In this document: positions 24,866-57,932 of the stretch, in pieces
How positions within the stretch are numbered: position 1 is the stretch's first letter
Layout: every line of letters starts with the position of its first letter
NCBI RefSeq assembly: GCF_036588685.1
Contig: NC_086380.1
Coordinates: forward strand, 54,250,001 to 54,314,000
Length of the DNA: 64,000 nucleotides
Direction: 5' to 3'
Source: Mytilus trossulus
Taxonomy: Eukaryota
Notes under the pieces: generated by a model
The model's input: only the letters and a program-made list of their open reading frames with translations
The model's database searches: none
Told to the model about the DNA's origin: nothing
Position numbers and translations under genes: made by a program

Positions 24866-26339
24866 ATAAACTTTCTGTATACAAAGCTTTGAATTTTTCG
24901 AAAAGACTAAGGACTCTCTTATCCCAGACATAGGTTTCCTTAGCCGTATTTGGCACCACTTTTTCGGAATTTTGGATTCTCAATGCTCTTCAACTAGTAA
25001 TGATTAGAAAGCACAATGGGGTCAACATTTGTACTCTGTTGCTAAATTATCATTCAAGATCATTTCAAAATAGACTTTATAGAGAATACTCATTTTACAA
25101 AATCAAACATAAGTTCAAAGTAGAATTAGGGGAGCGATACAGCCTCTTGAAAGCTCTATTTAAAATTTTAAGATTGGTTTAGTTCGAAATAGGTGGGTAT
25201 ATTGATAAGGAGTATGACAATACCTACTTCCCCTCCGATTTACTGATCGTTTGTTAGATTTAAAAACAACACTTCTCAAAATCGATTCACTTCAAGATAA
25301 TTTTGAATAAATACTAAGAAGGTGCAATTACCAGTTATAAATTTAAATATACCGAATTGCGATAGGATAAGTGGAATACATAATTAAAACTTTAAATTAA
25401 AGATTTTTGCACTTTTTTAAAAGCAAAAACCGAAATAAAAAGAACAGTCAAATAAATTCGTTTTGTTTGAATTTATACCTTCTGTAAATATTAAGTTGTA
25501 CATAATTGATAAATAATGACAATACTGTAAACATCTTATTTGTGTCATGACCTTATCTGAAAACATTTGATAATCTATTAATTTACTATTCATTTTTTTT
25601 GTCATGGAAATTGGTATGCATCAACAACAAAATGTGTTTTTAAAAAAAGTAAGGATATGAGTAGATGACATTTTGGAATAAGAACTGCTCGAGATTAAAC
25701 AGAAAAATGAAAGTTTGTTCCGTTTACAGCATGTTAATTGTCTTGTATATTCATAGTCATGATAGTGGTAAGTTTTCTTTTATATCAGATGATTTGATCC
25801 CAAAGGATGAAAATAAATTATAAAATAAATCAAGGTGGAAAACATTGAACAATTTGACGACAAATTATCTATATGGCGACAAATTTGAACTATTTTCAAT
25901 CAGTTTTTTTGTTATTGTGATAGTAAAGTTTGTGTTGGGTTCATATGTTATGCCTTTCTTATATGTTTGATGCAAATACATCATTGTAATAGTTTGGGTA
26001 TTTCTATTTTTTGGTATACAAATTTGTTCATTGCAGATTGTCCAGATTCAACAATACAAATCTTCTGAGTAAAATGTCCCTTTATCGTTTGTTATGATAT
26101 ATTTATGTTAAAACAAAAAGTTAAGATTTTGCAAATAAAAAGACTTTTCTTTATAATGTGTATATAATTTCAAACTATTTTAGTAATTACAAAAGAAATA
26201 ACTATGTCATTAGGACATCTTTTGATAATATAACTGTTCTCCTTGTGAATTTTACATTATAGCTGTTTTTTAAAAGTTTGTATTAGAGATTACAAATAGC
26301 ATAAACATGATACAGGAGTGGATTTCTAATGAGGATTTA

Positions 26340-26760
26340 GTGTGCGTCATTTTTTGCGAATCTGTTTTGTATTGTCCTGAATTTATGTCTACTAATGTAT
26401 AAACTAAGTAAAGATCCATCAAATCAACATCTAATAAAAAAACCTTAATAAGACATTAAAATAATTGCACTTGTAATGGCTCTCATTGATGACGAATTCT
26501 GTATTCACATTATAGAGATGTATACTGCTAAATTAACTTTAAATAAACCTGATTTTAAGAATGAATACTGGTAAGAGATTATTTGTTTTGTATATTTTCC
26601 AAATGTTAATTGTTCATTTTTAGATGATGACGTTTCTTTGTTATATATGGTTCGATTGTTCGATTAGGTAGTGTCTTTGAAATGTTTATCATTGTTTATG
26701 ATTTGAACAACGTTATTTCTGTTTTACTTAAAAATTATAAAACATCATGGTTTTTCAATA
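26340..26760 (+). pseudogene. Highly decayed Penelope-like RT remnant in intron 1 of copy 1
   Basis: Residual KLSKDPS, KLTLNK and FLDDDVSL segments collinear with the RT at 3169-3660. Confidence 0.55.
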
Positions 26761-27904
26761 CTAGTACCACAAAAGTGTAACAAAAGATACCAAAGGAGCA
26801 GTCAAACTTAATTACTTGGTCTTAATGTTTACATCTTTTTAAATTTTAAATTTTTTTAGCAAAGCACAGCATGTCGACATATTACCTGCAACTCATCATC
26901 ATTTGCTTATTTTCTTTTGGTTTGCTTTTCAATTTTCAGGAGGTTTTAATTAAAAAGTAACTTCACAAAAGTACTGAACGATGAAATTTAAAACAGAAAT
27001 ATTCTAGATCAAATGACAAAATCAAATGCTTAAACACATCAAGCGAACAAAAAACTATTTTGATATTCCTAACTTGGTACAGGCATTTTTTTAGACACGG
27101 TTACCAATATAAATCGGTCAGTAGGTAGGAATGCACATTTGATATTCATTGGAATATGGACTGTCGGTTGAAATATCAAACCTTTAGAATATACAAACAT
27201 ATTGTCGATACAAAAAAATACAGTATCTTGATGATGTTAACCACAGTTTAGTATAGAAAAAGTAGTGTAAATTAAAAATCAAAGGTCTTTATCATATGTA
27301 TGTTGTTGCAAAATTTCATAGATTGTGACGTAAGATTTATCTGAACGTTTTTATGATTTTTAAAATACACTTCTGATTTACATAAATGGTTGAATATACA
27401 TCGTCATAATATTGTTGAATGCCAAGGTAACACGAATAAAGGTCATCATTTTAAAATATTGATGATCCAGTTATATATCGTTCTTTAGACGGAGTTTGTT
27501 TCCAGTTCAATGACAGTAGAATTTTTTCGTTTTCGTTGATGTTAATACAGCAAAAAGAAAGATAAATTCGTGATCTGGTAGAATTTCATTATTTATGACA
27601 AAAAAATAAAACAAATCCGGGGATTAAACAAAAACTAAAGATAACGCTAAATATATAAGAACTACGACACAACAGAAACACGACATTAAAATGTAACACA
27701 CACAGGATCTATATAACGTAATGGCCATTTTCCGGACTTGGTACAGGGCATTTAAAAAAAAATGAGTTAAACCTGGATTTGTATCATGCCACACTTCTCG
27801 CCTGAATGACAATATCAAATTCCACATTGAAAAGTTACATTACATGACAATAATGCAATGCAAATAAATGGGAGAAACAATAGGACAGAAACACACACGA
27901 ATGA

Positions 27905-28100
27905 TTGCTAACAAAAGTTTCCAGATTTAAAGTTGAATACGCAAGAAATGCGTTTCGTCCATGCACGACTAACCAGTGACGCTCAGATCTAAAAAGTTTG
28001 AAAGTCAAAACAAGTACAAAGTCAAAGAGGACCAACAATTCCGAAAGGTTGTGACAAATACGGCTATGTTCCTGCCTTGGATAACAACATCATTATTATT
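27905..28100 (-). mobile_element. Degenerate retrozyme copy with hammerhead remnant (27939-27984)
   Basis: gcgtca-CTGGTTA-gtc..gac-GAAAC..ttgcgt; adjacent sequence homologous to 31745-31850. Confidence 0.65.
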
Positions 28101-28245
28101 TAGAATAATAAATATTATTTTAGAATCATTTCAATGTGCTCTGGTCCCTTTTCCGTTCAGTTTATCTAATCTTTCATACTATGGGTTCTCTTTGACTTGT
28201 ACAACAGTTTGCACAATGATGGCATATTTTTTAAATATCTTTTAA

Positions 28246-31200
28246 GGTGGCACCCTACAGATATAGTATTTTTTTCCCCCCATTGAATTTTTTTTTAAAT
28301 TTGCATACATATACTATGCAATGGCCTCTATAAAAATTTGAGTTAAAAATAGTATGTCACCAGACTCGTTTCCATGGTAACGGTCGCCAAAGTTGGTATA
28401 TCACGTGTATGCATAAATACATACCTGATGTAGAAAGTCTGGATTTTTTTTAACCCTTTGAAAGTATTTTGAAAGGTTTGTTTTACAATTATTACAAAAT
28501 TATTATTTAAAATGAAAATAAAACACAAATAATGGCAGTTTTATTCATTTTAATTGATTTCGGCTACAATTTCATCAACACTGCACCACAAAAAAAAACA
28601 CAGATTTTGTTAAAAATTTCTATTTTTCTTAAATTTCCAAAAAAATGGTCTACATGTATATTTAATAGGTGTGACCTTTACTGTCTACCTTAAATCAATA
28701 CAGTTGAACTGTTCTTTTTGGTATAAATTTGCATATATGCAGCATGCGACCAAGTTTGTGATAAACATAAGTTATCTACATCAATAAGTTATCTTCATTG
28801 TCATAATTGTGGCACATAAGAACCAGTGGCAGTCTTGACTATATACTTTGTATTTAAGATATAAAATACAGTACAAATCAATAGTGTAAAATGTGATCAC
28901 TGTGACCTTCTTTTGTCTGGAAGCTGAGTTACTAACTGAGACTCTGAGAGTATATATAAGTTTGCATGATCTGACACCTTTTAGTTGCTGAGATATACAT
29001 TTGTTGTATATGAAATTGGATTTTTAATGTTACCAAAGTCAGTGAAGTGGAAAATGTAGGTCAGTGAGATCTGTGTACAAATTTACATGATCCTACATTT
29101 TATAGTTGAGTGGACTAAATATATTGTCCAAACAAAAAAATGTTGTAAATGCCTGAAAAACACCATTATCAGATTAAAAAGTCTCAAATGAAACCTAAGT
29201 TTTTTCTCAAAGGTAACTGCATGTAATTATCCTAAAATGTACGATTTACCATTGACAGCTATCCTTCATTTTTCTGAAAAACTGCTGCTAATAACCTGCT
29301 GTTAAATGATGACAATGAGACCTACAATTGATAACAAATATAACAAAAATTAAATAAACAAATGTATATATAATATATATATAAATGAAAGTGCATGCAG
29401 TGTTCAAATACTATAGCTAAAACATATTCATTTAAAATTAACTGGAAACTCAGGCTGTTAACAATGATATTTGTAATAATAGTATGTATAAAGGCTTTCA
29501 AAACCAAATAGGTTACCTTAAATTTGTTGAAATTGTACATTAATCTGTTAATATAGATTTCATTTAATAAATTTGAATGTTATAATTCTAGTTCAATATT
29601 TTTGTTGAAACAAATTCTGTCATGTTCTATACATGAAAGTCTTCAAGTATATATAACAATGCTTTACCACAAAATTGTTTTCGAAATATTGACCCTAAAC
29701 TTGAAATTATCACCAAGATCTGTTAATTCACTTTTATGACTGCTTACATGTAAGTGCAAATATGAATATAATTATGGTCCTCATTATACTTTATATCTAC
29801 TTATAAAAAAATACTTTGAAATTACACATGTATATGACTAAAGGTTTTAATAACCTTCCAATTATTCATTAAATTGACCATGTTTAAAACTGTTTCTTCT
29901 TTTGCTGAGTTTTGAATTTATTTACAGGATTCTTTTGCAACTGCAAATATTTTCTTTCCAGTTTCATTCTCCTTTTTCTTTAAGTATGTCTGATGAATTC
30001 ACAAAAAGTACATTCAATCCATTAAGGAAATTGTTGAAATGTGTGGCACAAATTCCTGCATGTATCATTCCTGAAAAATATGATATGAAATGTCAGTCTG
30101 CACCTGTATTGGTTAATTAGACAAACTATAAACTATTCAGACTTGAGTTCATAATTTTATTTGGGATATTCAATTATTTTTTCAATTTATATTTATATAA
30201 TATGATTGTGAATTCATGTTTACTTTTATTCTTATACATATACAATGTAGATCACAGACTCATATTCATTTCTAATAATGTGGAATGAGGGTGAGTGCCC
30301 CCCTTCTTAATTTTCTTTTTTGCTTTTATCCTTTATAGATTATCCTGCATACACATCATTCTAGATGTTTTTAAATTACTACATATGTAAGTTATGACTA
30401 TCAGACCACTTGGTCTCTGATCACATGCAAAAGATGACTTAATATGAAAATTCTGATTATAAAATAAAGAAAACTAATAATATTTTAAGTTTGTAAAACA
30501 TTATTTTTGTGAATGAATCATTGTGATTGCATTTGTTTACTTTTTCAATTCTAATTTTATTTATGGTTATATAATTGCTACCAAATAAGTATTTACAAAT
30601 TAATCCTCCCCTTTTGAATGCAAAACTAAAAAGCCCCTTATGTATAGATGTCTTTGTGTTCATTGCAAAAATGATAAATAACTTCCAGGGGCAAAATTCC
30701 AGAAAAATTACTAAGTTCAGCTTCATAAAAAATTTGGACAGCACTTCCCCTCAAAATAAAGCTTTTTACCCTTAAATCACATAAACCCCAGACCATAATA
30801 GAGGGGTATTGAAGAAAGAAAAAGAGAGGTGTGGGGCAGGTTCATTTATTCAAGACATGAAACCATACACCTTCTCCACCCAGTAAAATGTTTAAAGAGA
30901 ATATATAATAAGGAGAAAATTGAATTCTTACCATGTACAGCTTTTGAATTGATAACAAATTCAACAGTCCCATGTTTTCTCTCGTTTCTACACTGTTAAA
31001 CGTGTATGATATGCAGGTTACATGCACTGCAGCTACAACGATATGGTATGGACAAAATGCCCTCCTGGTTCAAGCTTTGAAATTCGTATTTCCGTTCACA
31101 GACAGTATCCGCAGGGGATTTACTCTTAACGAACATATTCTGTTGTAGGTGATCAGCCAGAGCTAGCCGTCGACCTTCTTTCCATGTTTCGTCATACGAA

Positions 31201-31543
31201 AGACCACTGTGATCGGATGCCAAATTTCTCCAACTTCCAGTTCCGAAAACTTATATCATATGACCTGATAAGTTGAGAATCATTCAATACTGTGTGAACT
31301 TTCAGGCTGAAGCTATTCATATTCTTTATTTTAAAAGAACGCATGTATTTATCCTTTATGATAAACCTTCCTTTCTTCTGAGCGATGAGCTGTAACTTAG
31401 AAGTTGTTTACACACGTTGTCAACAGACGACATCGGAACTGTTACCGTGACCTAGATATACAGGCGATATATCCTAATTTTTTAACGGGAACCAGTTTTA
31501 CATCAGTAAAACGTTGTTATCTCCCTTAGTGTCGGGAGCTACC
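28246..31543 (-). mobile_element. 3.3-kb TTAA-flanked Kolobok-like element with decayed spliced transposase
   Basis: TTAA at 28242-28245 and 31544-31547; TIR GGTGGCACCCTACA vs GGTAGCTCCCGACA (11/14). Minus-strand remnants WKEGRRL..ERKY..RCSCSACN (about 31223-31010), GMIHAGI..HFNNFL..LN..VAKESC (from 30070), and S-FNSRLLAAVFQKNEG (29321-29250). Confidence 0.8.
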
Positions 31544-31663
31544 TTAAGAAGGTCCGTTGTTTTACCACCTTTTTTATTACAAAACGTTATACATTCAATT
31601 GGAACAATATAAAAGCGTATGAACACATTTTAATTTCATTCTTTGTAGGCACTATTATATGAT

Positions 31664-31890
31664 TAGTTATCAAAAGTACCAGGATGATAATTTAGTACGC
31701 CAGACGCCCGTTCCGTCTACATAAGACTCATCAGTGACGCTCACATCAAAATAGTTAAAAAGCCAAAACAAATACAGTTGAGGAGCATTGAGGACCCTAA
31801 ATTCCAAAAAAATGTGCCAAATACGGCAAAGGTCATCTACTCCTGGGGTACGAAAATCCTTAGTTTTTCGACAGTACAAAGATTTCGTCA
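31664..31890 (-). mobile_element. Non-LTR retrozyme remnant with type I hammerhead (31697-31742)
   Basis: Minus strand gcgtca-CTGATGA-gtct tatgt agac-GGAAC-gggc-GTC-tggcgt; stems I and II pair; GAAA core mutated to GGAA. Confidence 0.8.
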
Positions 31891-32827
31891 ACATATTTCA
31901 TATTAAAATAAAAATATCATTTATAGTTCCTAAATTATAATTGAATACGTTTTAGTGTTTATCAATAGCATAAGCTAAATTAAAATCAGTATATCTAAAT
32001 AACTCATTCATCGAATGTGCTCGAGCAAAATGAACACCAGAACACATTCTTTAAAGATTATCAAAAAAAGAAAATTACTATTTTTGTAATTCCAGTATAT
32101 TGTTCACATGAAGTATAAATACAAACCTTCAACAGTGGGAATATCGATGCTTATTCAACACCAGATATTTTTGATTACTATACAAACCTGTCGGAATACT
32201 ACTTGTTCCCGTCCCGAAACCAGTTGATGAGGTTTGGAGTAGAGGCTTGTAATGATGCATGTATCCTCTTATCATCTGCAGTCAACCTACAGTCTCAAGA
32301 CTTTTATGAAATTTGTATTGGTGGATCAAACAACAAAGTGACAAATATCCGTCGGAAACACAACACTGGGAACGTTCACCAGATTAATACAATTGATATT
32401 GTAAACTATACTGAACAAAGAACACTGATTGTGAGATGGATGCTCAATGGAGAAATAACCCTTCTTAAAGAAACCAATGGTGGAACGGAAGTAGTAATGA
32501 AATGGACAGATCCCAACCCAATACCCATACATGGTGTCGGAATCATGACTGGATGGGGAGCAGACGGACTTTGGACTTTAGAACATTCATGTAAGCTGAT
32601 CCATTCAAAATAAGATCGTTTTATTGATTCATAATGTATATAACAAAAATTGAAGAAAAAAATTATTCAAAGTGGAACATCAAAAATCAATTTAATTTCG
32701 AATTAAAAAGCTCTCATACTTCAAACAAATGACTAACAATATTTATAGTGAAGATCTATAAAACAAGAAATACAATGTAGTTGAATTTGTTTGACCAAAG
32801 AAATATTTGATGAGTTATCAAATGTAC

Positions 32828-33175
32828 TAGGTTATTAAGCTGATACGCAAGACGCGCGTTTTGTGTGCATAAGACTCCTCAGTGACGCTCATATTAAAAT
32901 TGTAATAAACAAACAAGTACAGAATTGTGCTAAATAGGACTAAAATAATATATTTCCTTCAATAACTGTGTAAATGCAGACGGAATATAGGAAAGCTCAA
33001 GATTTCTCCAAATATATGCCAACAATTTAAAAGTTGTGCTAAATAGAGCTTAAATGATATATGCCTGAAATACAAAACAATCCTAAGTATTTTGAATAAT
33101 TCATAATTTAGCAAATAGAATATATAAAAATTACCATATGATTAATATTTATGTCAACACCGAAGTACTAACTAC
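32828..33175 (-). mobile_element. Degenerate retrozyme copy with hammerhead remnant (32845-32890)
   Basis: gcgtca-CTGAGGA-gtct..acac-AAAAC-GCGC-GTC-ttgcgt; keeps the palindromic ACGCGCGT stem III. Confidence 0.7.
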
Positions 33176-34995
33176 ACAATGTAAACCTTAACAAAAAAAG
33201 TATATGTGTAGTCATATTTTATCAATTTCATTACTTTAAAGGTGTTCTGCTTTCTATTTCAGCTTTCCTTATTGGACGTTATTGTGGTATTCCTACCACA
33301 TACGGTAATATGGTGTTACTTTCTACTTCAGTTAGTCTCAGTCGAATGAATTGTTTGTTCGAATGTTCACTGAACCGTGCTTGTCTTGGAATCAACTTTA
33401 ATAAGAAAACGAATGAATGCGAGTTTGTGTCTGGTGGACAGATTATTCATACGATCAGTTGTCAGGATCGGTCATTCTTTACAGAATGTTAAAACAAGTC
33501 TGTCCTGAATCAATGTTTTAATTTTTAAATATCGGTAAATATTGATTGAACTATTTCATATTATAAAGCAGTGACATTATCTTGTAAATAGTGGCCATAA
33601 AACAATGTAAACCATGATGACCCTTCATGTTTAGCATTATACTCCCTGTTGCTTGTTTAATTCATAAGATATATATCTAGAATACAGAAAAATCATTAAA
33701 ATCATATAACTTACAGGTCATAGGTCTCATGTCAAATATATATGTTTTTCAAAGTTAATAACTGTTTTATGACATAAAAGTTGGTGGTTTCTAATGGGGA
33801 CTTATTGTGCGTTTTCTTTTACGAACCGGGTTTTGTATTGTTCTGCTTTACACTTGTTGACTAAACTTTTTGTTCTCCGGTAAGAGACTTCCATATGAGA
33901 AAATGAACCTAAGAAGAAAATGTGGGTCAAACTACAGAAAAGCAACATTATGTTTTTTAAGAAAAACAGATTGTTTTTGATAATGCAATTCACATATAAT
34001 TTCAGGAAAATTATATTATGGTTTTGAAAATACACAGACTAAGAGTGTTTCGGATGGATGCCATTGATTAATATGTAGATCAAATATGTAGATCGAGTAT
34101 GCAGAACAGTTTTTATTTACACAGAAATTGACAAATATATATCAACTTTTGTGAACCTTTTTGCCCTAACACATTTGAAGTTAGGAATATATTATTTAAC
34201 AAAGCTTTAGTTAAGCCTTCAGTGTGATTTAAATGTCTTGTTATAATTATCATAGATGGGGACATTAATTGAATTGATTATGAATGATAAAAGAATTAAA
34301 AGATCAACAAAAATAAGTCAAATAAGCGAAACACTTTGTTTGAAAAGGAAAACCTTTCTGGTATCTGGAGAACAATACACTAGAATTGTATGCAAAATAC
34401 ATGGAATAAAAATGAAAAGGTAGCCAGTAAAATGATTATTTTCTAAATAGTCTAGATGTGAGACGAAGAATATTCAACACTGATGAAACCAATGCTATAT
34501 CTCAATATTCACATCACTTAATGATTCTATTTAAAATTCTTCATTGTCAATGAAACTATAGAAAATAATATTTCAAATTAAAGAACAGTATTCTTATCTA
34601 CAAATCATAAAAACTATTAATAAATACTTTGATAGACAGATAAAGAAAAAAAGGAAATAGAAAAAGCAAAGCAATTGTGTCATGTGGGTGGAATCTGTTT
34701 AAAATAGAAGTTAGAGAGAAAAATATAGAACATTGTAAGGTAAACGTAAAAGAGATGGAAACCTGATAATAGAGGAATGTACAATATCCGTCTATAAAAT
34801 AAAAACTGATAAAACAACTGGTATTGATGGTCTCTCAATTGCAAGTTATATATCTGTTTGGTTCAACCTACAAAACTTTGGCGAGCAACACCAATTTTTT
34901 TTTGTATTGTGTTATTTATCCCCAGAGGTACATTATTGTCAAATTTGATGATTCTACGACAAAAAAAAGGTGGTTCCAATTTGCACTTATGAGAA

Positions 34996-35625
34996 GTGCA
35001 AATTAATCCAAGAACACGTTCAAAGCACTTTCTATATGGACCGAGGAAACTAAATATGATTTTAACAAAATTCTCATGCTACTCATATTTCTTGAACTAT
35101 GACTTGTTTAGAGTCAATATAATTGCTGATCCTTCTTGCTTTTGTGGATGTAACATTGAGACTGTACACCATTTCCTTTTCGACTGCTCTTTATATATAC
35201 ACCAGAGAGAAATTCTGATGAATAATCTAAGATGGCTTCCTGATGACTTTATATTAAATGTTAAGTTACTTACATCTGGTAATCCGAATCTCTCGTATGA
35301 ACAAACTGTGAATATATTAAAACATGTCTTCGAATTTATCAAAAGGTCTGAGAGATTTCTTGTTATGTAGAAAATGTATTTACGGTACATCCACGTCATC
35401 ATCATCATTATCATCATCATCATCAATGTTTTCAATGTTTACATCTATTTTTGTTTAATTTTTTTTTCTTAATTGACAGACTTGTAAAATATTGTTTATT
35501 TTGATATTGCATGCTCATATTAATATTGTATTATAAATTATTGTCATTCGGAGCGGACTTCATAAGTATGGCTTTCTTGTATCCAATCCATTTTACTTTG
35601 AGTAAATAACATATGTTTAAACTAA
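34996..35625 (+). mobile_element. 5'-truncated LINE 3' end (CR1/L2-group ORF2 C-terminal zinc-binding region plus 3' UTR)
   Basis: YG-RKLN..LNYDLFR-NII-DPSC-CG-ET-HFLFDC-Y-R..LL-G..V-EFI-S-RF-stop; (CAT)n in the UTR. Confidence 0.75.
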
Positions 35626-37029: not shown

Positions 37030-37300
37030 TTCTCATTTTCTTGTAGCTTATGCACGGTATGGAACAGCAATCATTCTATGCGCTCCTTTGGTATCTCGAG
37101 AGCTTTTTCAAAGAAAGAACGGACATAATCACCAGTCAATTTAGTCATATCGCCCAAGGGGTATCTTCTCACATAACTCATTACCAGGTTCAAATTGCGG
37201 CCCCAATACTCCATATTCAACCATTACATTTCTTTTGTTAATATTGTTTCCACAATATCAGGAATACGTGTGATATGCACATCTTTTATACTAGTCTTCA
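37030..37300 (-). pseudogene. Possible decayed LINE ORF1 fragment
   Basis: Minus strand reads GRNLNL..DYVRSFFEKALEIPKERIE-stop-LLFHTVHK, resembling the CR1-type ORF1 R-NL..V-F-L-I..F-RVHR pattern. Confidence 0.35.
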
Positions 37301-38406: not shown

Positions 38407-38675
38407 TCAGGAGCCTGTAATTCAGTGGTTGTCGTTTGTTTATGTGTTACATATTTGTTTTTAGTTCATTTTTTGACATGATTAAGGTCGATAGATTTCT
38501 CGCTTGAATTGTTTTACATTGTCTTATTGGGGCCTTTTATAGCTCACTATATGCGGTATGGGCTTTGCTCATTGTTGAATGCCGTACGGTGACCTATAAT
38601 TGTTAATGTTTGTGTCATTTTGGTCTTTTGTGGATAGTTGTCTCATTGGCAATCATACCACATCTTCTTTTTTAT
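38407..38675 (+). repeat. Interspersed repeat (other copies at about 62500-62715, 49670-49850, 56300-56575)
   Basis: Shared GCTTTGCTCATTGTTGAA-CCGTACGGTGACCT..GGATAGTTG-CTCATT..CAATCATACCACATCTTC. Confidence 0.75.
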
Positions 38676-39553
38676 ATAAGTCTGAAAATTACACCAAACA
38701 ATGTTAGAGTAAGATTTTCTGCTGACAAATGTTAACAACTGCTTTTAGTTAAACAAAAACTTTGTTACTGGTTTGTCATTCGTAATAACCATTCGTGGGA
38801 GACCGAACTAGGATAATGTCATAAAATGTGTTTGAGTATATGAACCATTGAAGGCGTGCTATAATTATGAAATGAAGAAGGGGCATTGGTGTAACACAGA
38901 AAGCTACAGATTAGTCAAATGGATTGAAAGCCAAAGTTTACATACAAATGTAGAAGGACGCTATTTGTCCTAAATGACTTTAAATGTATCGCAACTTAAA
39001 TGGAGATTGTCTTTTTGACACTCATACAACACCGGCTCTTTTGTTGTTTCCTAAGATATGCTGACAAAGTGCTAGTACTTTGTTGTTTAGCATATGTCTA
39101 AGAAGGCTTGAGCAAAAAGGGTGTAGTTTAATTCATAATACCATGATTTATTCTTACAAATATATGCGCTTGAAACGATACATGAAATGAATCAAGACAT
39201 AGTTTGCTTGTTCCTTTTTAGGTGTTGACCCCTCGTTTTTGGTGAGGTTCGAGTTGTTTATTCTTCAGCTTTCTATGTTGTGTCATATGTTCTATTGTTT
39301 GTCTGTTTGTCTTTTTTAACATTGTTAGTTAGTAGTTGTCAGCTTATTTTCCATATATGAGTTTAACTGTTCCTCTGGCATTTTTCGTACCTCTTTTAAA
39401 ATTATACATTGTTGCTGATCTGTCCTCTAAGATAGTTTAATCCAAGACATACAAGACCTGATAGGTAATTTTCGTGCTGTAAATTCAAACATAAAGTCCA
39501 TAAAGTGGAATCAGGTGAGACAATACTCTTGAGAGTATTTGGGTAAAATTTAA

Positions 39554-40706: not shown

Positions 40707-40773
40707 ATGTTCAAGTTGAAAAGGACTGCTTATTTCGTTTCGATCAAGTTACTTCTGTTGTTTATTTATAGTG
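40707..40773 (+). CDS. FAMeT-PAN gene copy 2, exon 1 (signal peptide MFKLKRTAYFVSIKLLLLFIYS)
   Basis: ATG at 40707; basic then hydrophobic N-terminus; phase-1 donor G|gtaatt at 40773/40774 joins in frame to exon 2 (G+CA=Ala). Flanks resemble those of copy-1 exon 1. Confidence 0.7.
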
Positions 40774-42192: not shown

Positions 42193-42687
42193 CAAATGGT
42201 GCAGATGCAATATTAAACCAAACCTTTAACAGTGGTAATATTGATGCTGATTCAACACCAGATGTTTTTAATTATTACACAAATCTGTCCGAATACCACT
42301 TATTTCCGTCACAGAACAAGATGTTCAGGTTTGGAGTCGAAGCTTGTCATGATGCATTCATTCTGTTATCATCTGTAGTCAATCTACAGTCGCAAGACTT
42401 TTATGAAATTTGTATCGGTGGAACAGATAACACAGCGTCAAGCTTTCGTCGGAAGTACAACACTGGGAACACTCTTTTTATTTTTACACCAGAAATTTTA
42501 AACTGCACTGAAAAACGGACAATAACTTTGAAATGGACATTCAACGGAGAACTAACACTTCTTAAAGAAATCAATGGCGGAACGGAAGTAGTAATGACAT
42601 GGACAGATCCCAACCCAATACCTATACATGGTGTAGGAATCATGACTGGATGGGGAGCAGACGGACTTTGGACTATAGAATATCCGT
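42193..42687 (+). CDS. FAMeT-PAN gene copy 2, exon 2: farnesoic-acid-O-methyltransferase-like (Methyltransf_FA) domain
   Basis: Acceptor ttccag|; 495-nt open phase-1 exon; motifs F-V-ACHDAFILLS, FYEICIGG-N-S-RR, ILNCTE-R, WTDPNPIPI-GVGIMTGWGADGLW typical of Methyltransf_FA; donor T|gtaagt. Confidence 0.9.
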
Positions 42688-43551: not shown

Positions 43552-43781
43552 CTTTCCTTATCGGACGTTTCTGTGGTATACCAACAACATATGGTAATAT
43601 GATGTTACTTTCAACCTCAATTAAACGCACTAGAATAATCTGCTTGTCCATATGTTCTCCGAACCGTGCTTGCCATGGAGTCAACTTTAATAAGGAAACA
43701 AATGATTGCGAGGTTGTGTCTAGTGGACAGATAATCCAAACCATCAGTCGTCAGGATTGGTCATTCTATACAAAATGTTAA
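43552..43781 (+). CDS. FAMeT-PAN gene copy 2, exon 3: PAN/apple-like domain and stop (spliced CDS 792 nt, 263 aa)
   Basis: Acceptor tttttag|CT; 230 nt; six Cys in the pattern C..CxxxC..CxGVNF..C..C-stop, PAN/apple-like; in frame with exon 2. Confidence 0.85.
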
Positions 43782-48300: not shown

Positions 48301-51300
48301 CTGGTATGGTTAATATTTATATTGAATCGCCTGTAATCGCCATAAAAATAACAAAACACTCATATAAGACTTATAAATTTATATTTCAATATTCCTCTTT
48401 ACCATGATTACAAATGTACAATTCAACTGAATGGCATGTCTAGTGTAGATCTCTCACTCATCTTGGTTAGATATTGCAGAATTTTTAAAAAGATTTCATG
48501 AAAGAGACAACAAATTCCATTTTTTTTTCATCCATGAACACACAATTTTTTAACTGAAATCCTTTTTGCAGCTCCTATTCTAAGAATATTCACAAATCTC
48601 TGAACTGCCATTATGTATATTTGGACATCATTTTAACTGAGATAACAACATCAACTTCAATAATGATGAAAAAGAAGTTAAATTGTCCAATTAATATTCC
48701 TCGGTTTTTCAGCATCAAAACACTAAATTCCAATTCATTTGGTCTTGAAACTGTCAATGCTTCTGCTTAGAATGGTACATTATGTAGAATAGCTGTCTTT
48801 TTTTCACAAACATATTTGGTAGCTTTCTAAACACATTTTTATCACATCTTCCATAATCATGGTAATGGCCATGATGAGTTATAAGCAACTTTTAACTGGT
48901 GTCAGCTGACTGCAGGTCTATTAAGGTCTTCATCCCTGAAATAAAAAAAAGACCCAAATATAATACATGTACAATGTATACATGTTTATCAACTGAAATT
49001 TTTAAAATGAAAAAGTAATTCAAAGTTAGTGCAAACATACTTCTTCAAAAAGGTACGATTAAAATTCTAACGAAATAATTTCCATCCTTTTTTACCTGTA
49101 GTATTAATGTCTTCATTCAACATTTGAACAAAATATAAATTTTCAACATGCATTTTAAAAAGGTGCACTATGTTATAAATATTTAAATTTATGTATAATG
49201 TTTAACTTCATTATTTTATATCTCCTTTTCCAAATGTGAACAATGACAGGAATACTTCAATATCAACATGATCACAAGAAATTTGAGCTAGCAAGTTCAG
49301 TATATTATTATAGGCCTAGGTGTATCTGTCATGTCTGTGTAAATAAATACTATTGCTGGTACAGAAGCTTCATTTTCAATTAAGAAATTATCATGATCAT
49401 TTATATTGGCTACATAAACTATTGTATTGCAATTCATGAAGAATGGAAAATTGTGATATCAATAATTGCTATTTCAGAAAATATTTACATACATCATACA
49501 ATCTTCTCACGATGTAATAAAACAGAAATTTATTTGCACATACATGTACATGTATCATAAAATCTTGAAGAAAAGCCTGACTTGCTAATATACATGTAAT
49601 CAACTTAAACCCCCCCCCCCCCCCACCCCCACCCCCACACACATCCTGTACATATATGTATGACTGTGTCTGTAATTAAACATTTGTTGTTTGTTTGTTC
49701 ATTCATTTTCCCCACATAAATTAGGCCAATAGTTTTCTCCTTGTTAATAAACATTTATGATTTTGGGCCTTTTCTGTGTTTTCTCATTGTTGAAGGCTAT
49801 TATGCCTAAATGGTGACCTATGGTTTTTAATTTCTGTTTCTGTCTCATTGTACAACAGTTAGATAATTGCAGGATAAACAATTTACCTGTCTATAATAAA
49901 GATCCCAAATTCAAACCATTACTTTATATTTCATCAAAGCTTGAATGCCATACTGTTACTTCAGTCCTGTAATTCTCAGGCAAGCTAAAAAAAAAATTGT
50001 AATATAATATACTTTTGAAAAATTGATAACAACACGTTTAATAATTTCATGCGTCCATAGCAAATGTAACATGTATGATCATGATAATGAATCATAATCT
50101 TTTTTAATATAAAGAAATTACTTTTGCCACACAAGTTTGTTTATAATGCAAATTAAATGAACTAATGTCATGATACGGATGTTGCTAATTTATGATTAAC
50201 TAGAAGTGCTGAGAGCACTACTCAAAATAGCCTGGCAGCTCCCATGCCCTCCCCAAACAAAAAATTAAAAAAAATAATCAGAAACAAACAAGTGAATCTG
50301 TGAGCTACTGATAACTTATGATACCCCCATAAACTTTAACAATTTTAAGGTACACAGGAAGTTGTTGAGTGATGAAGATGAAATAGCATTACATGCATGG
50401 TATTGCTAACTCATATATAAACCCTGAAAGCAAATTTAAGAAATCCTTGTATTTTTCCTGAGAACATAACTTTAATATATAGTCAGTCTGACTAGAGACA
50501 AGAAATAGATTATAGTTCGATTCTGTTTACTGGGGATATATAGCTTTGAGTGCACGTGATGGATTTAATTCCAACCAACATTGAACAGGGACAGAGTTTA
50601 GATATTTGATGTCAAACATGTGTTTTAGAGGGAAAGTGTATGCAGTGACTATTCAATTTATAACTGACAATAATTATTATCTGTAAATATATATATATAC
50701 ACGAGTCTAAATTGAAAACTACGTTTAAACCTATGATTGCGTTGGATAAAAACCGCAATTTTTATACGTGTGCATGTAAAACAATTTGTTTTGTAGAAGG
50801 GTATAAAAACAGCACAAACAACATTTTCCAAAAGACATATATATATATAATATAAAAATAATATGTCAAAGTAGGCAGTCATGATGAGCAAATTATATAT
50901 TAATTAGCCTCAGATCATTGCTTCTTTTGGTCTTTTCTTAGGCCAATATATACATTTATATATATCATGTATATAAGTCTGTTTATGGTTACCTGACCTA
51001 CCCTTTTTTTGAGCACTGACCCTTTAAATAGTCATTTTATTTCCGTTGTAAAGTGAAAAGTAAACTGAACTCGAGTCAAAAGTACATTTACATTTTTGTA
51101 GTGTTGCCAATAATATAAGTCAATTGCTTGATACATCCTAATGTTCACAATCGTTAATATGGCAGCTCTTTTAAGAAAATTTCACATCTTGCGTGATGAA
51201 ATAAATACTTTGCCATCATTTTTTCCAACCAATAAAAAAGGGAAATAATACAATCTTTAAAAATACAGGTAAACTCGGCCCATGACAAGATAAAACCCCT

Positions 51301-53059
51301 GACTCTAAATCATGCCAAAAAATAAAATAAAAATACTATTTTATTTTAGCTTTGAGCTTTGCTTCAAAAAATGATAAAGCTAACTCTGGAACTTTTGGAG
51401 GTTACAATTAAATATGTACATGGACTGCTTAATAAGACATAGTCCAAATAATTATGACGTCTGGCAAGGCTATTTAAATGTTTTTCTTGGACGCCTTCCT
51501 ACTGGTGTCTCAGATAAAAATAAAAATAGTCTTGCCAGACGTCTTAATTATATGGACTATTACCAATAACAGACGAACAAAAAAAAATGTTTGTTAGGGA
51601 TGATGAATTGAAATTTAAAGGTGGTTTAGATGTTGTCCAAATAATTACGACGCCTTGAAAAGCTATTTTATTTTTCTTTACTTTGACGCGCCTTACTTTA
51701 ATCTTGAAAAGCTTTTTTTTTCCTCGACGCCTTACTTTTTTTATAACAGCTTTTCAACACGTCATAATTATTTGGAGTAGTTTTGATGAGGAATAATAAG
51801 CCCCGGCAAATTATATAATTACAGAATCAATGGCAAGATTAGTCCTAATAATTATTAATTGGAAGCAAATTATACATGTATTTGCCCTTTATAATACAGT
51901 TTATGCATATTATCATTAAACAGTTAAAAAGGTGATAAGAGGCACAGGCACAAGTTTTTTTTAGTCCAAATAATTATGACGTCTTGAAAGGCTATTATAT
52001 TTTTTTTTTCTTTGGCGCCTTACATCGACGTAAGGCGTCAAAGAAAAAAAATATAATAGCCTTTCAAGACGTCATAATTATTTGGACTAGTTTTTTTATG
52101 CTATTCGTCATTTTCCTAAATTATCTGACACAAGATGAACAGGTTGGGGTCAAGTCATGAAACATGGGGTGGTCCTAGGTTTGTGGGATCAATACGTTTT
52201 TTAGGGGTCGAAAACCCAAAAAAAAGTGGGGTAAAAAACTTCATAATTTGTGTGGACCCCTATGAAGAAGGACCCCTGTATTTCTGTGTCTTTCGTATAA
52301 AAAGGATGGATACTGGCCATGGTTGAAATTAAATATTGCAACACGTGGTTTATATTTCTGTCCTATGCACATGATGCATAAGCTTAGTCCAAATAATTAT
52401 GACGTCTCGAAAGGCTATAATATTTTTTTTCTTTGACGCCTTACTTCGACGCCTTACGTCTAAGTAAGGCGTCAAAGAAAAAAATTATAATAGCCTTTCA
52501 AGACGTCATAATTATTTGGACTAGCATAAGCCATGCCATATTTTTAGTATGATATCTCGAGATTATATACCTGAAAGCGATACATTACACCATTTTGCCC
52601 AGACATTGGATCATATTGAATAAATTTTCCATTTTTTCTCATTAGTTTCTTCAACCAGGTCGTTTAAATATCAACTAACAAGTGTCAGGCTGCTTCAATT
52701 ATCTTCAATTAACAGACTTGCAAACTGCAAGCTTCTCGGCTACATAGATTTTCCAAATAAGGTAAACAGTGGGCGGAGCTTAAACTCCGCTTGCGATCTT
52801 TCTTTTGATAAATACAGCTTTCATTCAAATTATTTCTATTATTTGATGTGAAAATACAATATAATATGAAAAAAGACACCATATGTGATATATTTCATCA
52901 TTTATGCGATACTCGAAACTTACCTATTGCTACATTTATAACTGTGTCTGCAACGTCAAAAGTCGCCCGCCATTAAACATGTTGATCCACATAGGGGAAA
53001 TAACTCCTGCACTATTTTTTTATTCGGTTTTGCGGGAAAATCACCTTAATGTCACTGCG
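45371..53059. mobile_element. 7.7-kb TIR DNA element with 2-bp TSD (EnSpm/CACTA-like) splitting a SINE-like repeat
   Basis: TIR CGCAGCGATGTTAAGG vs revcomp CGCAGTGACATTAAGG (13/16); CG duplicated at 45369-45370 and 53060-53061; joining the flanks restores a repeat like the intact copy at 59450-59662. Confidence 0.75.
51440..52523. mobile_element. Four fold-back MITEs with TAGTCC..GGACTA ends (51440-51559, 51633-51779, 51962-52089, 52385-52523), Academ-like
   Basis: 120-150 bp near-perfect palindromes; 8-9 bp TSD visible on two copies (gttttttt; gcataagct/gcataagcc). Confidence 0.75.
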
Positions 53060-54159
53060 CGTGTTTAAACTTTTGATTTTGTCATTTACTTAGGGACTCT
53101 CCGTTTTGAACTTTCATCGGGGTTCAGTATTTTTTTTTGTAATTTAACTTTCTTAACTAATGTTGATACCAAACAGGCTCGTGAATGATTGAGATGATAA
53201 TAGGAATGAAAATTATTAAGAAATCAATTTCGATAAAATTGTATAAAGCTTTTATTATGACTGATTTATCTGTGCTAAAAAATAAACAGTGGACAAAATA
53301 GAAATAAAATATCATCTCAAAATCACAATTGTAGAAAATGTGTTCACTAATCTTAAACTAGTTACATGTATCACAAATGCAAAAAGTAAGATTTTAAAAT
53401 TTCCAAAAATTACAGGGTTTGCTACAGTACGAGTTTATAACAGTATGACAATCATTTGTTTTTCAAATGCAAATGAAACTGAATAACCCGTATTTAATCG
53501 ACGCATACGTTACTAAAACATGTTACTGTATATCAAACACGTCAAAACATTTTAGATCTATATAGTTTGTGCCAGTTTATTAGTTTCTGTTTATTTTGGT
53601 GTTTAATCACGAAATTAATGTTTTATAATTGATTTTGTTCAATAAAAATCTCAGAATTTGAAAATTCTGTGCATTTTAATATCGAATTGAAACAAAAGTA
53701 TAAGTCGATACAATCAATACTTTCACTAGTATTTGTCTCGACGCTTGGAAATTGTTTTAAAAATTATTTCAAATTGTATTATCATATTGTTAATTATTAT
53801 GCAGTTTTAAATGTTAAAAGCTTTTTTGCGCTAAACAATATATGACTAGTCATTTTGATATTTGCTCATGTAATAGCGGATATAACCTAGAGTGTTCACA
53901 AATAATAACTAAATGAACAAAATCCAACATTATATGTATCTTCTTTGTCAAAATTAAAAGGATAACAAATATTTAATTGAAAATTAAACCATCGGAATAT
54001 TATGTTTTGAAATCGGAATTTTGAAATCGGAACAATATTAATATATTTTTAATTGAATCTTTTCTACGTCATCGTTATCAATTATACATATCAAATATTC
54101 CGTGAAAATACATTTTTTTGGAGATGAGATTTATAAGCCATACATTTGCTCTTCAAAAT

Positions 54160-57100
54160 ATGACGAAGAATATTGTTTTCATAATAGTTATCGTGTTTCA
54201 TGTATATGCATATGGTGGTAAGTGTTTTTCGATTTTTCAGTGTTGTGCCAGAAATTATCATTGGTATAGAAATAAACAAAAAATGACTGTTCATTCTGAA
54301 AAAATTGAAATAGTTAGGCCTTTTTATCTGAGGAAGACTTAACCTGGTTGTATTTGACATACATTATATTTTGTGCTCTCCGGCTTCGTACTTTTTTCGG
54401 CTTCTTTTTTTTCCTTTTTTTTGAGTCGAGTGTCACTGATGATTCTTTTGAGCTTTTGATTTTGCCATCTGATTAGTGACTTTCTGTTTTGAATTTTCGC
54501 CGGAATGCTGTATTTCTGTGAATTTATAGATGAAACACGCATTTTAATCCTGGTATAATTGATGAGTTTATTGACAGGAATCTGATAAAACAATTCATTA
54601 TTTATAGTTATCTTATAAATATCTTTATTATGATATTTTAATTTCATTTTTGACAAGAATTTCATGCAAATTATGGTCAAATAAATTTGCTAAAAACTTT
54701 CATTTTTAAATGTTCTTGCTGTAAAGCGATATCAAATGTAAAACGCCGCACAGCCTTTCGCATTCATTCCTTAACAAAAAAAAGTGTACTGTTACATTTG
54801 GGAACAAAAGTTTTAGAAATCAGTCACTAACTCATTTTAGCGAATTTGATGATACTTGATTAAGAAGTACATTTGAGATCATTTTATGATTTTTTTTAGT
54901 AGTTCATGTCGTATTAAATTCGTGATCATAAATGATTATATTTGGCGATGATAGATTGGTCATAATCGTTACAATGAGTTGTTGTAAATTTTGATTGCGG
55001 GTGACATGTATGATAAGTATTTAGAGAAATCTTGATTATATATGTAGGAATTAGAACTGCGATGGTACTCCTTAACGATGGTCACGCTGAAGTGCGATAG
55101 TCTACGCTGAAGTGAGTTGGTGAAAAAGCTGAAGTGCGATAGTGACATTGTGACGCTTACTTGTTGTAAGAAACGCTGAAGTGTATTCGTGGATACGCTG
55201 AAGTGCGATGGGCATATTTTGACGTTGTTTATACAAGCTAAATGCGACGGTCTTGGGTTGGAATCCTATTTGTAGAGGTATAGTGGATAGCATGCTAGCC
55301 TCATATTTGACTGATCGGTTTTTATTCCTGCTCAGGTCTAACCAAAGATGTTAATCATCCGCTTATATTAGCAGATAGTATATGGGATCAGAAAATATAC
55401 AGGGTGGCTGAGAGAAATGGGAAATCTCACTTTTAAAGTTGGTCTACTAATAATAAATCATAGAAATTTTGGTTAAAATGAATTCTACTTATTTTGGAAT
55501 TTAGGAGAAACACATTGGAGTCACTGATGGGGTTAATAAGTAGGATCCAGTTTATGTTATCAAATATACTAGTAACTCGTTTTTGTCATATCACACCTTA
55601 GAAATTGCACACGACACCAAGTCATGTAATAAGCTTCTTTTCCACTCAGGACCAAGTTGGGACCAATCGGTTTTATTTTTTGCCTATCATGTTGCAGAAG
55701 GTTAATATTGTAGGCACAAGAAAATTACTGATATTGTGTATTTTTTTTACAGAGCAGGTTTCATCTCAAGCCGCTGAATAAAAGAAAATTATCGCTACTT
55801 GATCATGTTGATATAACGAAACAAAATGCTTATAATTGAATGGTACTTTCAAAATGTCAAAAACAATAATAAATCAAGACATTTTACTTATCGCACAAAG
55901 CTTTTCCGGCGTACGTATTGTAGTTCCGAACACTGTTTAGCTCATCTATGGACCAATATCATCTTATCCTTTAGCCCTCTTGTTCGCATTGATTTACATA
56001 ATTTGGTAACCTCCACACCCAATGATTAAAACTGTTTGGGACTTGAATCTTTCGTTTTATTTTATTTCCGTTTCTTTGTTCGAATGACACTTTTAGCTAC
56101 GAACCATTTTCTGCTCCTGCCTGCATTTCATTTAAAGCCTTTTGTTTTTTGTCTTTTAGTATCTTTAGTCCCTCTTTTATGCGTTCAATGTATATGTTAC
56201 TACGTCTTTTGATTGAGTGAAGCCATTCAAATTGATATTTGATAATGCATCTTTCTAAGTTGTGATGTTATACTATTGTTTCATGTTATAAAGACGGTTT
56301 AGTATCTTCAAAAGGTTTAATTCAGCAATATGATGTTCAGTTGTTGTCGTTTGTTGGTGTTGTTCATAAATGTTTCTCATTTCTCGCTTTTTTATATTGA
56401 TTAGACAGTTTGATTTACCTATTAAAAGGATTTACACTATTAATGTTTTGGAGCCCTTTATATCTTGCTTTTTGGTGTGAACCAAGGCTCCGTGTTGAAG
56501 ACAGTACATTGACCTTTACCTTTACTGTGACGTAAATTTAGAATTGTCTCACTTGCACTTATAACACATCTTCCGATGCGTGTATATTATACATTTTAAT
56601 TATCAAACACTAATTTTGCATCTACTTATTTCATAGTATTTTTGAAAACCGTTCTTACACATTAAGAGTTTTTAATTGTAGATGAAATTCGAATCAGAAC
56701 CCTGAACGCGGGAAACACTGATTCGAATACGAATCAACATATTTTTGAGGACTACACAAGCCTATCCGATTACCATATTTTTCCCTCAGAAAAAGAGTTC
56801 GTCAGGTTTACCATTGAAGCCTGTCATGACGCCTTTATTCTTTTATCTGCTGCAATTGACCTTGAGTCACAAGACTTTTATGAAATATGTCTCGGTGGAT
56901 CAAATAATCAAGAGACATATATACGTCGAAAATATAATGATGCTAACCCATTCAAGATTTCAACACCTGACATTTTGGGCTGCACAGAGAAAAGCACATT
57001 TGAAATAAGATGGACAAAGGAAGGAACAATACATCTCGCCAAAGAGTCAGCAGTTGGGATGGAAACAATAATAGACGTGAAAGATTCTACCCCATTACTC

Positions 57101-57932
57101 ATTCAGGGGGTCGGGATCATGCCGTCGGATGTATGACAAATTATGCAAATTATTAAATTTGTCTTAAAAACGAGATAAAGTAATTTAATGTAATGCATTT
57201 GAGTATGTTGGATGAATAGATAATACACTGAAATTAAAAAGAAAAGGAAACGTTTCGTTCGCTGTATAGATACTACACTGAAAATAAAAAGAAAAAGATA
57301 AGTCAAATCATCTTCATCTTACTTATTTGACGTTGGAATGTAGTCGGTAATATTCTCACATATTTATTGGTTGATTGATTAGCAAATCTACTTTCGTTCT
57401 GTTTGTATAATAAATAATATTCAAGATAACATATTCATCAGAACTTTGACAAACAGATTTAAATGATTATTTCAAACAACATGTTTGTTATCATCAAACT
57501 AAAGATTGTCGCAAAACGATCGACCCAAGCTCATTGCAGCCTTTTTCTTAACACAATATGAATAAGTTAGGTGAAATTCCTCGCCGTTGTTATTCCTTTT
57601 TAGCATCGAAACACTTTCAGAAGTAAACACAAATTAAAGCATATACATAACAAATTACTGTAAGTATTTTATTCTAACGTGGTCTATTTTTGTATTCTCT
57701 CGACATTTTTGGCGGACTTTATTGTGGAGTTCCTTCAACGTTCGGTAGTATGAACTTACTTCCGATATCAGTAAAGCGCAGCAGAATTGCATGTTTGTTT
57801 AAATGTTCACCAAATAGTGCTTGTCATGGAGTCCACTTTAATGAGGAAACCAATGAATGTGAACGTGTGTCTGTAGGACAAGTCATCGATCAGTCCACCC
57901 GTTCCGGTTGGTCATTATATACAAAATGTTGA
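54160..57932 (+). pseudogene. FAMeT-PAN gene copy 3, divergent (exons 54160-54217, 56682-57136, 57703-57932)
   Basis: Exon 1 MTKNIVFIIVIVFHVYAYG with G|gtaagt (alternative upstream ATG at 54124). Exon 2 is open from ttgtag|AT through ACHDAFILLS, FYEICLGG, QGVGIM, then PSDV-stop, lacking TGWGADGLW. Exon 3 is a 230-nt PAN-like exon but its acceptor reads CG (57701-57702). Exon 2 is not in the ORF track. Confidence 0.8.

Follow-up and report, generated by a model that had tools for sequence, protein, structure and literature searches.

The window, by which we mean the whole 64-kb stretch of mussel DNA analyzed, contained one intact gene (copy 2) and two pseudogene copies (copies 1 and 3). We give roughly an even chance to the reading that copy 2 encodes a secreted, non-enzymatic protein of two modules, a predicted lectin-type sandwich and a PAN domain, which would likely bind the sugars of glycoproteins or polysaccharides, and that the other two copies are defective duplicates. 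The sequence-only reading that preceded this work had proposed three paralogues with the same architecture. All three copies were real and each contained the three exon types (Table 1), but copies 1 and 3 were broken.

Table 1. Exons of the three gene copies, in window positions
Feature	Position	Strand	Remarks
Copy 1 exon 1, signal-peptide-like, 61 nt, phase 1	25707..25767	+	ATG...G/GTAAGT
Copy 1 exon 2, Methyltransf_FA domain, interrupted by a TAA in frame	32096..32590	+	
Copy 1 exon 3, PAN domain, seven Cys	33263..33492	+	
Copy 2 putative non-coding upstream exon, start uncertain	39448..39514	+	inferred from a match to the loose end of a contig from one presumed RNA run
Copy 2 exon 1, signal-peptide-like, 67 nt, phase 1	40707..40773	+	
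Copy 2 exon 2, Methyltransf_FA domain, predicted ConA/galectin-like beta-sandwich	42193..42687	+	
Copy 2 exon 3, six-Cys PAN/apple domain and stop	43552..43781	+	
Copy 3 exon 1, signal-peptide-like, 58 nt, phase 1	54160..54217	+	resembles N-terminus of annotated P0009
Copy 3 exon 2, truncated, with TGA 57134-57136 closing the frame	56682..57136	+	
Copy 3 exon 3, PAN domain, with CG instead of AG at the acceptor	57703..57932	+	

The three coding exons of copy 2 joined into an open frame of 263 amino acids with GT/AG, phase-1 introns, and its exon 1 and donor were conserved at nine places in the surrounding array. A signal-peptide-like exon was found in every copy, as had been claimed, with best 10-residue hydropathy values of 2.35, 2.65, and 3.3. 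The exon 1 DNA of copy 1 matched seven places in the genome, every one inside the array, and the matches lay 2.7 to 6.4 kb upstream of a copy-1-type exon 2. Copy 3 exon 1 had a second in-frame ATG at 54124.

Codon 28 of copy 1 was an in-frame TAA (32116-32118), whereas Leu stood here in three close paralogues; this copy also had Tyr in place of a conserved Cys. In copy 3, 8 nt at 57122-57129 replaced about 85 nt, and exon 2 lost its last 14 codons and its donor; the lost 3' end was not found elsewhere in the window. Three close paralogues had AG at the exon 3 acceptor that was CG in copy 3. The stop in copy 1 and the end, donor, and acceptor losses in copy 3 therefore left a single intact gene, and assembly error may be a source of these breaks.

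Copies 1 and 2 were compared with contigs assembled from four runs that were presumed to be RNA (none was recorded as RNA) and that had a depth of only 3 to 4. Contigs from all four runs covered copy 2 exon 2, and contigs from three of the four (one study) ran from position 42687 straight into 43552..43781; that is, the exon 2-exon 3 splice occurred in a transcript near-identical to copy 2. The proposed splicing of all three exons was thus borne out for this join, but the exon 1-exon 2 junction was not seen in the contigs at this depth, and two contigs that extended beyond the 5' part of exon 2 carried sequence other than exon 1. The CAG/GT donor of the putative upstream exon, at 39514, was kept in four of five listed paralogue alignments (CAA/GT in the fifth). 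An 8-letter loose end before 42193, from one run, was absent from the window and, with a donor, from the retrieved paralogue loci. There was no contig cover of copy 1 exons 2 and 3 or of copy 2 exon 1 at depth 3 to 4, which is not evidence of silence. In the case of the distant family member P0087, the signal-like, FAMeT, and PAN parts were all on one 1,088-nt contig.

The Methyltransf_FA (FAMeT) domain, PF12248, was confirmed in exon 2 of all three copies, scoring 90.5 bits in copy 2 and 94.3 and 62.6 bits in the other two (cut-off, 24.2 bits). Exon 3 had been described as a 230-nt, six-Cys, PAN-like exon. Its length was 230 nt in all three copies and PAN_1 (cut-off, 21.4 bits) scored 25.2 bits in copy 2 and 22.4 bits in copy 1, but copy 1 had a seventh Cys and copy 3, at 21.1 bits, was just below the cut-off. 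Five Cys of the six-Cys pattern were present in all 39 intact paralogues and the first Cys was present in 38; a family-specific Cys pair, C74 and C127, was conserved in all 39. Across 263 domain instances, the conserved polar residues were N102 (90%), E94 (81%), T174 (78%), R108 (77%), and D76 (72%). Among 51 hand-picked matches, PF12248 was accompanied by PAN in 19; its other partners were C-type lectin, F5/8, SUEL, WSC, CUB, kringle, sushi, and EGF domains, and no Rossmann methyltransferase family was found in this company.

AlphaFold2 models (pLDDT 94 and 91) predicted a concanavalin-A/galectin-like beta-sandwich (Z about 12) and a PAN/apple domain (Z about 11). The exon 2 model (pLDDT 94.3, pTM 0.90) had 10 strands of at least three residues and only short helices (three, of four residues each), and the Methyltransf_FA exon is predicted not to be a Rossmann methyltransferase. 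Its best structural matches were CBM66 (Z 12.2, rmsd 3.5, 136 residues aligned) and galectins (Z 12.2 to 11.6, rmsd 2.6 to 3.3; for galectin 3vv1, Z 12.2, rmsd 3.1, 127 aligned), the galectin and CBM66 matches covering 122 to 136 residues. A thrombospondin lectin domain (Z 11.4), legume lectin 7exo (Z 10.7), and ERGIC-53 1r1z (Z 9.2) were also matched. The expected PAN-fold match for exon 3 was found with the model of homologue P0001, at Z 11.0 to 11.6 and rmsd 1.6 to 1.8 over 68 to 73 residues (rmsd 1.6 to 1.9 across the apple/PAN domains compared). Identity to all solved structural matches was 4 to 18%, a PDB sequence search with P0001 gave no match at E<=10, and a PDB search with the domain profile gave only four chance matches (E 0.77 to 0.93). 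An ESM Atlas feature search, with all scores below 0.9 (a glucanase-named cluster and PelX_N), provided a lead only.

Galectins bind through H-x-N-x-R and W-x-x-E-x-R motifs, L-type lectins bind metal through E-x-D-T/S-x-x-N, and catalysis by GH16 enzymes involves E-x-D-x(x)-E. None of the 39 intact paralogues contained any of these motifs, and only the Asn position of the L-type motif was matched by eye. Because the galectin, legume-lectin, and GH16 signatures were absent, sugar binding is no more than an inference. Compared with galectins and CBM66, the sandwich had 4 to 12% identity, and galectins are not known to carry signal peptides. L-type lectins (legume, ERGIC-53/VIP36) had the same fold and order as the exon 2 model, but profile-level homology to VIP36 was not detected by hhalign with a shallow VIP36 profile (Neff 2.4 to 3.2; probability 0.3%, E 0.19): 9 of 40 shuffles scored equally high, and a reversed control outscored the real profile. 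By eye, D76, N102, and T174-G175 aligned with the Asp, Asn, and Thr-Gly loop residues of VIP36 (P0166), residues of the kind that L-type lectins cluster into one sugar site. The conserved polar residues may cluster, as judged from strand order only.

In our preferred reading, the signal peptide would route the copy 2 protein into an epithelial secretion, which could be mantle/shell matrix, mucus, or an adhesive. Once there, E94, N102, R108, D76, and T174 of the sandwich would form the contact to a glycan, and the fastest-changing residues (42-43, 100-104, and 114-120), which clustered beside the conserved core, would rim this site and set the paralogues apart in specificity. With the PAN module holding a second glycan or a protein, the molecule would cross-link matrix components or coat them, and it could trap particles or microbes too. 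A bolder and more tentative proposal, clearly less probable than the reading above, is that PF12248, which bears the name of a methyltransferase throughout arthropod hormone biology, is an animal lectin domain that has gone unrecognized, needs no metal, and has a sugar site of its own (conserved Asp76, Glu94, Asn102, Arg108, and Thr174), in which case mussels would have a repertoire of at least 60 secreted FAMeT-PAN lectins with a variable rim tuning glycan specificity. The confidently predicted lectin-type fold and the five named polar residues make the FAMeT enzyme question directly testable, and a small, secreted single-domain construct suits a test of enzyme versus lectin. AlphaFold DB or InterPro may already show the PF12248 fold, so a structural curator might be only modestly surprised.

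A common fold by itself demonstrates no function. SPRY, laminin-G, and viral domains appeared in the same fold-match lists at Z 9 to 10, and many such matches bind proteins. A possible alternative, about half as probable as our preferred reading, is that copy 2 encodes a secreted adaptor for proteins or mineral rather than sugars, a structural part of the shell or adhesive matrix, by analogy with the protein-binding laminin-G, SPRY, and HGF/plasminogen PAN domains. The absence of every known lectin signature from the intact paralogues is consistent with an adaptor, and the PAN-fold matches included plasma kallikrein/factor XI and HGF domains. FAMeT domains also occur in abalone shell matrix (PMC6003135) and in sea-star adhesive proteins (PMC9382459), in both cases with the PAN architecture not stated, and the role of the domain in shell and adhesive proteins is given as unknown (PMC9382459). 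On the other side, the best-ranked folds were carbohydrate-binding modules and galectins, the PAN matches also included the sugar-binding TgMIC4-A5 (2ll4) and the SML-2 lectin (2yil), the invariant polar residues are typical of a small-ligand site, and PF12248 is often fused with lectin modules.

Copy 2 resembled arthropod FAMeT, CPAMD8, abalone shell UP5, and sea-star Sfp7/Sfp8 in having PF12248 above the cut-off, and UP5 and Sfp7/Sfp8 in its signal-like N-terminus. Arthropod FAMeT has two PF12248 domains or PF12248 with DUF3421/DM9, whereas copy 2 has a single PF12248 followed by PAN within 263 amino acids; unlike arthropod FAMeT and CPAMD8, it lacks DM9 and alpha-2-macroglobulin domains. 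The mussel family also differs from other PF12248 proteins in its Cys pair C74/C127 and an N-terminal strand/helix extension. Exon 3 shares the six-Cys pattern and fold of PAN/apple domains (TgMIC4-A5, SML-2, factor XI/kallikrein, and the HGF N-domain), but those systems have tandem apples or a protease, and the mussel protein has one C-terminal PAN after the sandwich. No description of the function or fold of the FAMeT+PAN architecture was found in the literature searched, and the family would add an undescribed expanded member to the bivalve secreted-protein repertoire.

The cluster reached far past the window edges. A cassette, of which the trio was one unit, recurred at least seven times in an array that spanned 2.8 Mb and 39 loci; 19 of 38 stretches of this array were intact and 18 were broken. 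Genome-wide there were at least 62 FAMeT+PAN pairs, a number unlike that of other PF12248 proteins, and 39 of 63 stretches were intact. Recent duplicates had a dS of 0.02 to 0.10. Omega was 0.32 to 0.33, and it was about 0.3 both between and within subtypes. The tandem family is under purifying selection and turns over as segments are duplicated and copies are lost. Site models were run with our own approximate implementation (fixed tree shape and kappa, omega grid, gene conversion and recombination uncontrolled). The 19-gene array set gave no positive selection (M8 versus M8a, p=0.25); a 34-gene set gave p=0.024, with an omega of only 1.25 for the extra class and two sites above 0.9. Positive selection in the family is at most weak.

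Expanded bivalve families such as C1qDC, FReD, and C-type lectins likewise form tandem arrays, rich in pseudogenes, that encode small modular proteins for secretion; their domains differ from those of the present family. The C1q-domain and fibrinogen-domain proteins are immune recognition families diversified by arms races. By analogy, the mussel genes could be an immune pattern-recognition family diversified against pathogens, which we consider unlikely. The tandem expansion with its broken stretches, the recent duplicates, and the 34-gene test point in this direction, and arthropod FAMeT is fused to a mannose-binding DM9 domain (PMC5712788, PMC10015273). However, purifying selection with at most weak positive selection tempers the arms-race reading. 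In PMC8194122, FAMeT-domain genes (PAN architecture not stated) were upregulated in repairing mussel mantle, the expression data for these unspecified mussel genes pointed to the mantle and to repair of the shell and not to haemocytes, and the C1q domain alone was common to repair genes and the haemocyte set. The earlier proposal of a binding or recognition protein rather than a methyltransferase was partly supported: the predicted lectin-type sandwich without a Rossmann core agreed with it, but an immune role gained little from the selection tests.

Two further readings are very improbable. A secreted GH16-like glycoside hydrolase or transglycosylase would fit the Foldseek results, in which the best matches of the exon 2 model were GH16, CBM40, and related sandwiches and ranks 1 to 13 were GH16 enzymes (TM 0.44 to 0.52), and by eye a single Glu (E94) was kept on the corresponding central strand; but the catalytic motif was missing throughout, and PF12248 falls about 50 residues short of the length of GH16 enzymes. 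A decaying, functionless array in which copy 2 is intact by chance alone would account for the broken half of the array and the low contig depth, but not for the omega of about 0.3, the proportion of intact stretches, or the retention of the architecture in four Mytilus species and abalone, where database entries carry misleading names.

Class I SAM-dependent methyltransferases have a glycine-rich motif I, GxGxG or D/E-x-GxG. No motif of this type was present in copy 2, in agreement with the sequence-only reading, and strings matching it in 4 of the 39 intact paralogues were at non-conserved places. No methyltransferase was among the matches listed in four fold searches, an absence that alone rules out nothing. 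A true SAM-dependent farnesoic-acid O-methyltransferase, for which the Pfam family name alone speaks, is the least probable reading of all, given the all-beta model, the missing motif I, the signal-like N-terminus and disulfide-type Cys pairs, and the methylation activity that was never reliably shown, with enzyme status open in arthropod endocrinology (PMC10015273) and MF/JH normal in a Drosophila mutant according to that source, which cites Burtenshaw 2008. On a lectin-fold reading, dozens of mussel genes now labeled 'methyltransferase' or 'CPAMD8' would have to be relabeled. The NCBI 'CPAMD8' label on several homologues rests on the common PF12248 domain: in P0001 (263 amino acids), PF12248 was the sole domain detected by profile, with no alpha-2-macroglobulin/thioester-protein domains.

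The three-exon join proposed for copy 2 (40707-40773, 42193-42687, and 43552-43781) gave a single open frame of 263 residues with phase-1 introns bounded by GT and AG. With tblastn, two additional copies each of exons 2 and 3 turned up elsewhere in the window, all on the strand of copy 2. Pfam matched Methyltransf_FA in exon 2 of all three copies and PAN_1 in exon 3, with the third PAN_1 match slightly below the cut-off, and each first exon was short and hydrophobic with a phase-1 end. Fourteen of the 18 closest proteins were named, and all 14 were from Mytilus. The three paralogues of common architecture that the sequence-only reading had described were recovered as exon types, but copies 1 and 3 were not intact as assembled.

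Going by the assembled sequence, two of the three window copies are broken. In the case of copy 1, a TAA at 32116-32118 occupied codon 28, which encodes Leu in the paralogous loci L008 to L010, and the Cys equivalent to C127 of copy 2 was missing. In copy 3, 8 bases stood in place of about 85 bases found in the paralogues L013, L017, and L023. This replacement cost exon 2 its last 14 codons and its donor, and the residues lost included the near-invariant T174, G177, G180, and W182 (copy-2 numbering here and below). The copy-3 exon-3 acceptor was CG, not AG. In the copy-2-type paralogue L022 (G000:C8:55635800-55638200), the frames were open and the exon-3 acceptor was lost (TG for AG).

Transcript evidence came from contigs of putative RNA runs, and exon 2 of copy 2 was covered in all four runs compared. 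Splicing of the three exons had been predicted; exons 2 and 3 were joined in three of the four runs, but no exon 1-2 junction was seen in these contigs. Specifically, contigs from X1, X2, and X5 (runs of one study) broke at 42687 and ran on directly into exon 3 for its first 30 bases. The contigs differed from the window by about 2%, and their source may be an allele or a paralogue that is nearly identical. One contig had 8 unplaced letters ahead of 42193. In another, the signal exon was absent, and exon 2 was joined to a stretch that matched 39448-39477, which lies upstream of exon 1. These 5' ends suggested that a non-coding exon lies upstream and that this transcript form either skips exon 1 or is aberrant. 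For P0087, a distant member, a signal-like N terminus, the FAMeT domain, and the PAN domain were all located on one 1088-nt contig, and the first exon of the NCBI model for P0001, a 263-residue annotated homologue, was of the copy-2 type. By eye, the 205-aa frame listed below resembled part of the reverse transcriptase of a Penelope-type element.

Additional elements in the window
Feature	Position	Strand	Remarks
Putative non-coding upstream exon of copy 2	39448-39514	+	RNA-run contig; conserved across paralogous cassettes
LINE-type retrotransposon	9981-13145	-	Three consecutive same-frame ORFs split by stops; reverse transcriptase PF00078, E 8e-23
Tandem array	16413-18260		259-bp unit, 7.1 copies, 86% matches
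Diverged extra unit of the 259-bp array	18852-19101
1.1-kb repeat	1-1132 and 7830-8965		Two copies, 94.6% identical
205-aa open frame	3061-3678	+	No Pfam match at E 0.001

The genome contained at least 152 matches to exon 2 and at least 75 to exon 3. When 72 of the 150 listed FAMeT matches, picked by position, were used for pairing, at least 62 of 72 distinct PAN exon matches were preceded, on their own strand and at no more than 10 kb, by a FAMeT exon. Thirty-nine FAMeT loci were located at 54.28-57.05 Mb of the contig carrying the array. Upstream of each of the seven copy-2-type genes, at 7-20 kb, lay a gene of copy-1 type, and five of the seven were closely followed downstream by one of copy-3 type; because these neighbours recur, the window represents one unit of a duplicated cassette. 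Judged over exons 2 and 3 (exon 1 was checked in 14 loci), 39 of 63 stretches examined were intact; the 38 array stretches comprised 19 intact, 18 broken, and 1 undetermined. The dS within types 1 and 2 was 0.02-0.10 and therefore indicated recent duplication. An 8- to 13-residue C-terminal tail with CxxC followed the PAN domain in 21 of the 39 intact genes (L025, L026, L028, L041, and L046-L070); it was found in most older paralogues, and the three window types ended directly after the last PAN Cys. The array is real and of an ordinary-looking birth-and-death type, and its interest lies in its product. At G000:C8:30248188-30361423, five consecutive PAN exon matches had no FAMeT exon upstream among the matches listed, perhaps a further sub-cluster whose first domain has diverged or is different.

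Annotated proteins with the FAMeT-PAN architecture came from M. edulis, M. galloprovincialis, M. coruscus, M. trossulus, and Haliotis (P0155) and were named "farnesoic acid O-methyl transferase domain-containing," "CPAMD8," or "uncharacterized." The predicted structure argued against the first name. The window exon-2 model (44 sequences; pLDDT 94.3, pTM 0.90) contained ten strands and three 4-residue helices. Its best fold matches were CBM66 (Z 12.2, rmsd 3.5, 136 aligned) and galectins (Z 12.2-11.6), together with the C-terminal domain of a levanase, a thrombospondin lectin domain (11.4), and a legume lectin (10.7); SPRY domains and ERGIC-53 ranked lower (Z 10.1-9.2). Foldseek placed GH16 glucanases on top (E about 2e-5, TM 0.52); a PDB sequence search gave no match. 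The full-length model of P0001, which is 72% identical across exon 2, showed the identical sandwich type (pLDDT 90.7, pTM 0.73). Its C-terminal domain matched PAN/apple folds (4a5t, TgMIC4-A5, HGF, factor XI/kallikrein, and SML-2; Z 11.0-11.6, rmsd 1.6-1.8), as anticipated for exon 3. As far as a prediction goes, the sandwich fold is incompatible with a Rossmann-type methyltransferase.

Polar residues conserved across the 263 instances of the domain were N102 (90%), E94 (81%), D161 (81%), T174 (78%), R108 (77%), and D76 (72%). By strand order, E94 and R108 lay on neighbouring strands of one sheet, the equivalent of which binds sugar in galectins and GH16. D76, N102, and T174-G175 lay in loops positioned like those of L-type lectins, whose loop residues bind sugar (register by eye against the VIP36 lectin P0166). 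However, hhalign against 34 VIP36 sequences gave a probability of 0.3%, and block-shuffled controls scored equally high in 9 of 40 cases. The signature motifs used for galectins, legume lectins, and GH16 occurred in none of the 39 intact genes. Therefore, the protein works like a lectin at most and is assigned to none of these families. Domain partners in 51 hand-picked matches were PAN (19), C-type lectin (3), F5/8 (3), WSC, kringle, sushi, and EGF (2 each), and SUEL and CUB. The species with such combinations included amphioxus, hemichordates, a crinoid, and a scallop; these partnerships fit an extracellular binding module.

Selection tests used an approximate implementation of our own. Under a one-ratio codon model, omega was 0.33 in the 19 intact genes of the array and 0.32 in a wider set of 34, which omits the five most distant intact genes. 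M8 versus M8a was not significant for the 19 array genes (p 0.25) and marginal for the 34 (p 0.024), where 6% of sites were placed at omega 1.25 and two sites exceeded 0.9. The fastest sandwich sites were 42-43, 70, 85, 100, 104, 114-120, and 139, many of which adjoin N102 and R108. These rates fit a variable rim around a conserved core; simple relaxation along an edge strand also fits. The signal is not the strong one that an arms race would give.

FAMeT-domain genes are reported as up-regulated in M. edulis mantle under repair, and C1q is reported as the one overlap with a haemocyte set (PMC8194122). Other reports list abalone shell UP5 as secreted and carrying Methyltransf_FA (PMC6003135), place the domain in six sea-star adhesive proteins with a role stated as unknown (PMC9382459), or only name it (PMC5712788, PMC9363628, and PMC12388509). 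Searches of literature outside subscription journals turned up no account of proteins that combine FAMeT with PAN, of their expansion, or of a PF12248 fold of lectin type. The family would be an undescribed secreted two-domain one whose misnamed domain has a predicted lectin fold. Taking glycan-binding, protein- or mineral-binding, and immune recognition readings together, the product is very probably a binding protein and not a methyltransferase; that it is specifically a glycan-binding component of secretions has an even chance.

Methyltransf_FA was also fused with a Death domain in P0035, with haem peroxidase in the scallop protein P0093, and with weak CARD and AAA_16 matches, both below the cut-off, in P0108. 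In these fusions, the domain may serve in sensing or targeting.
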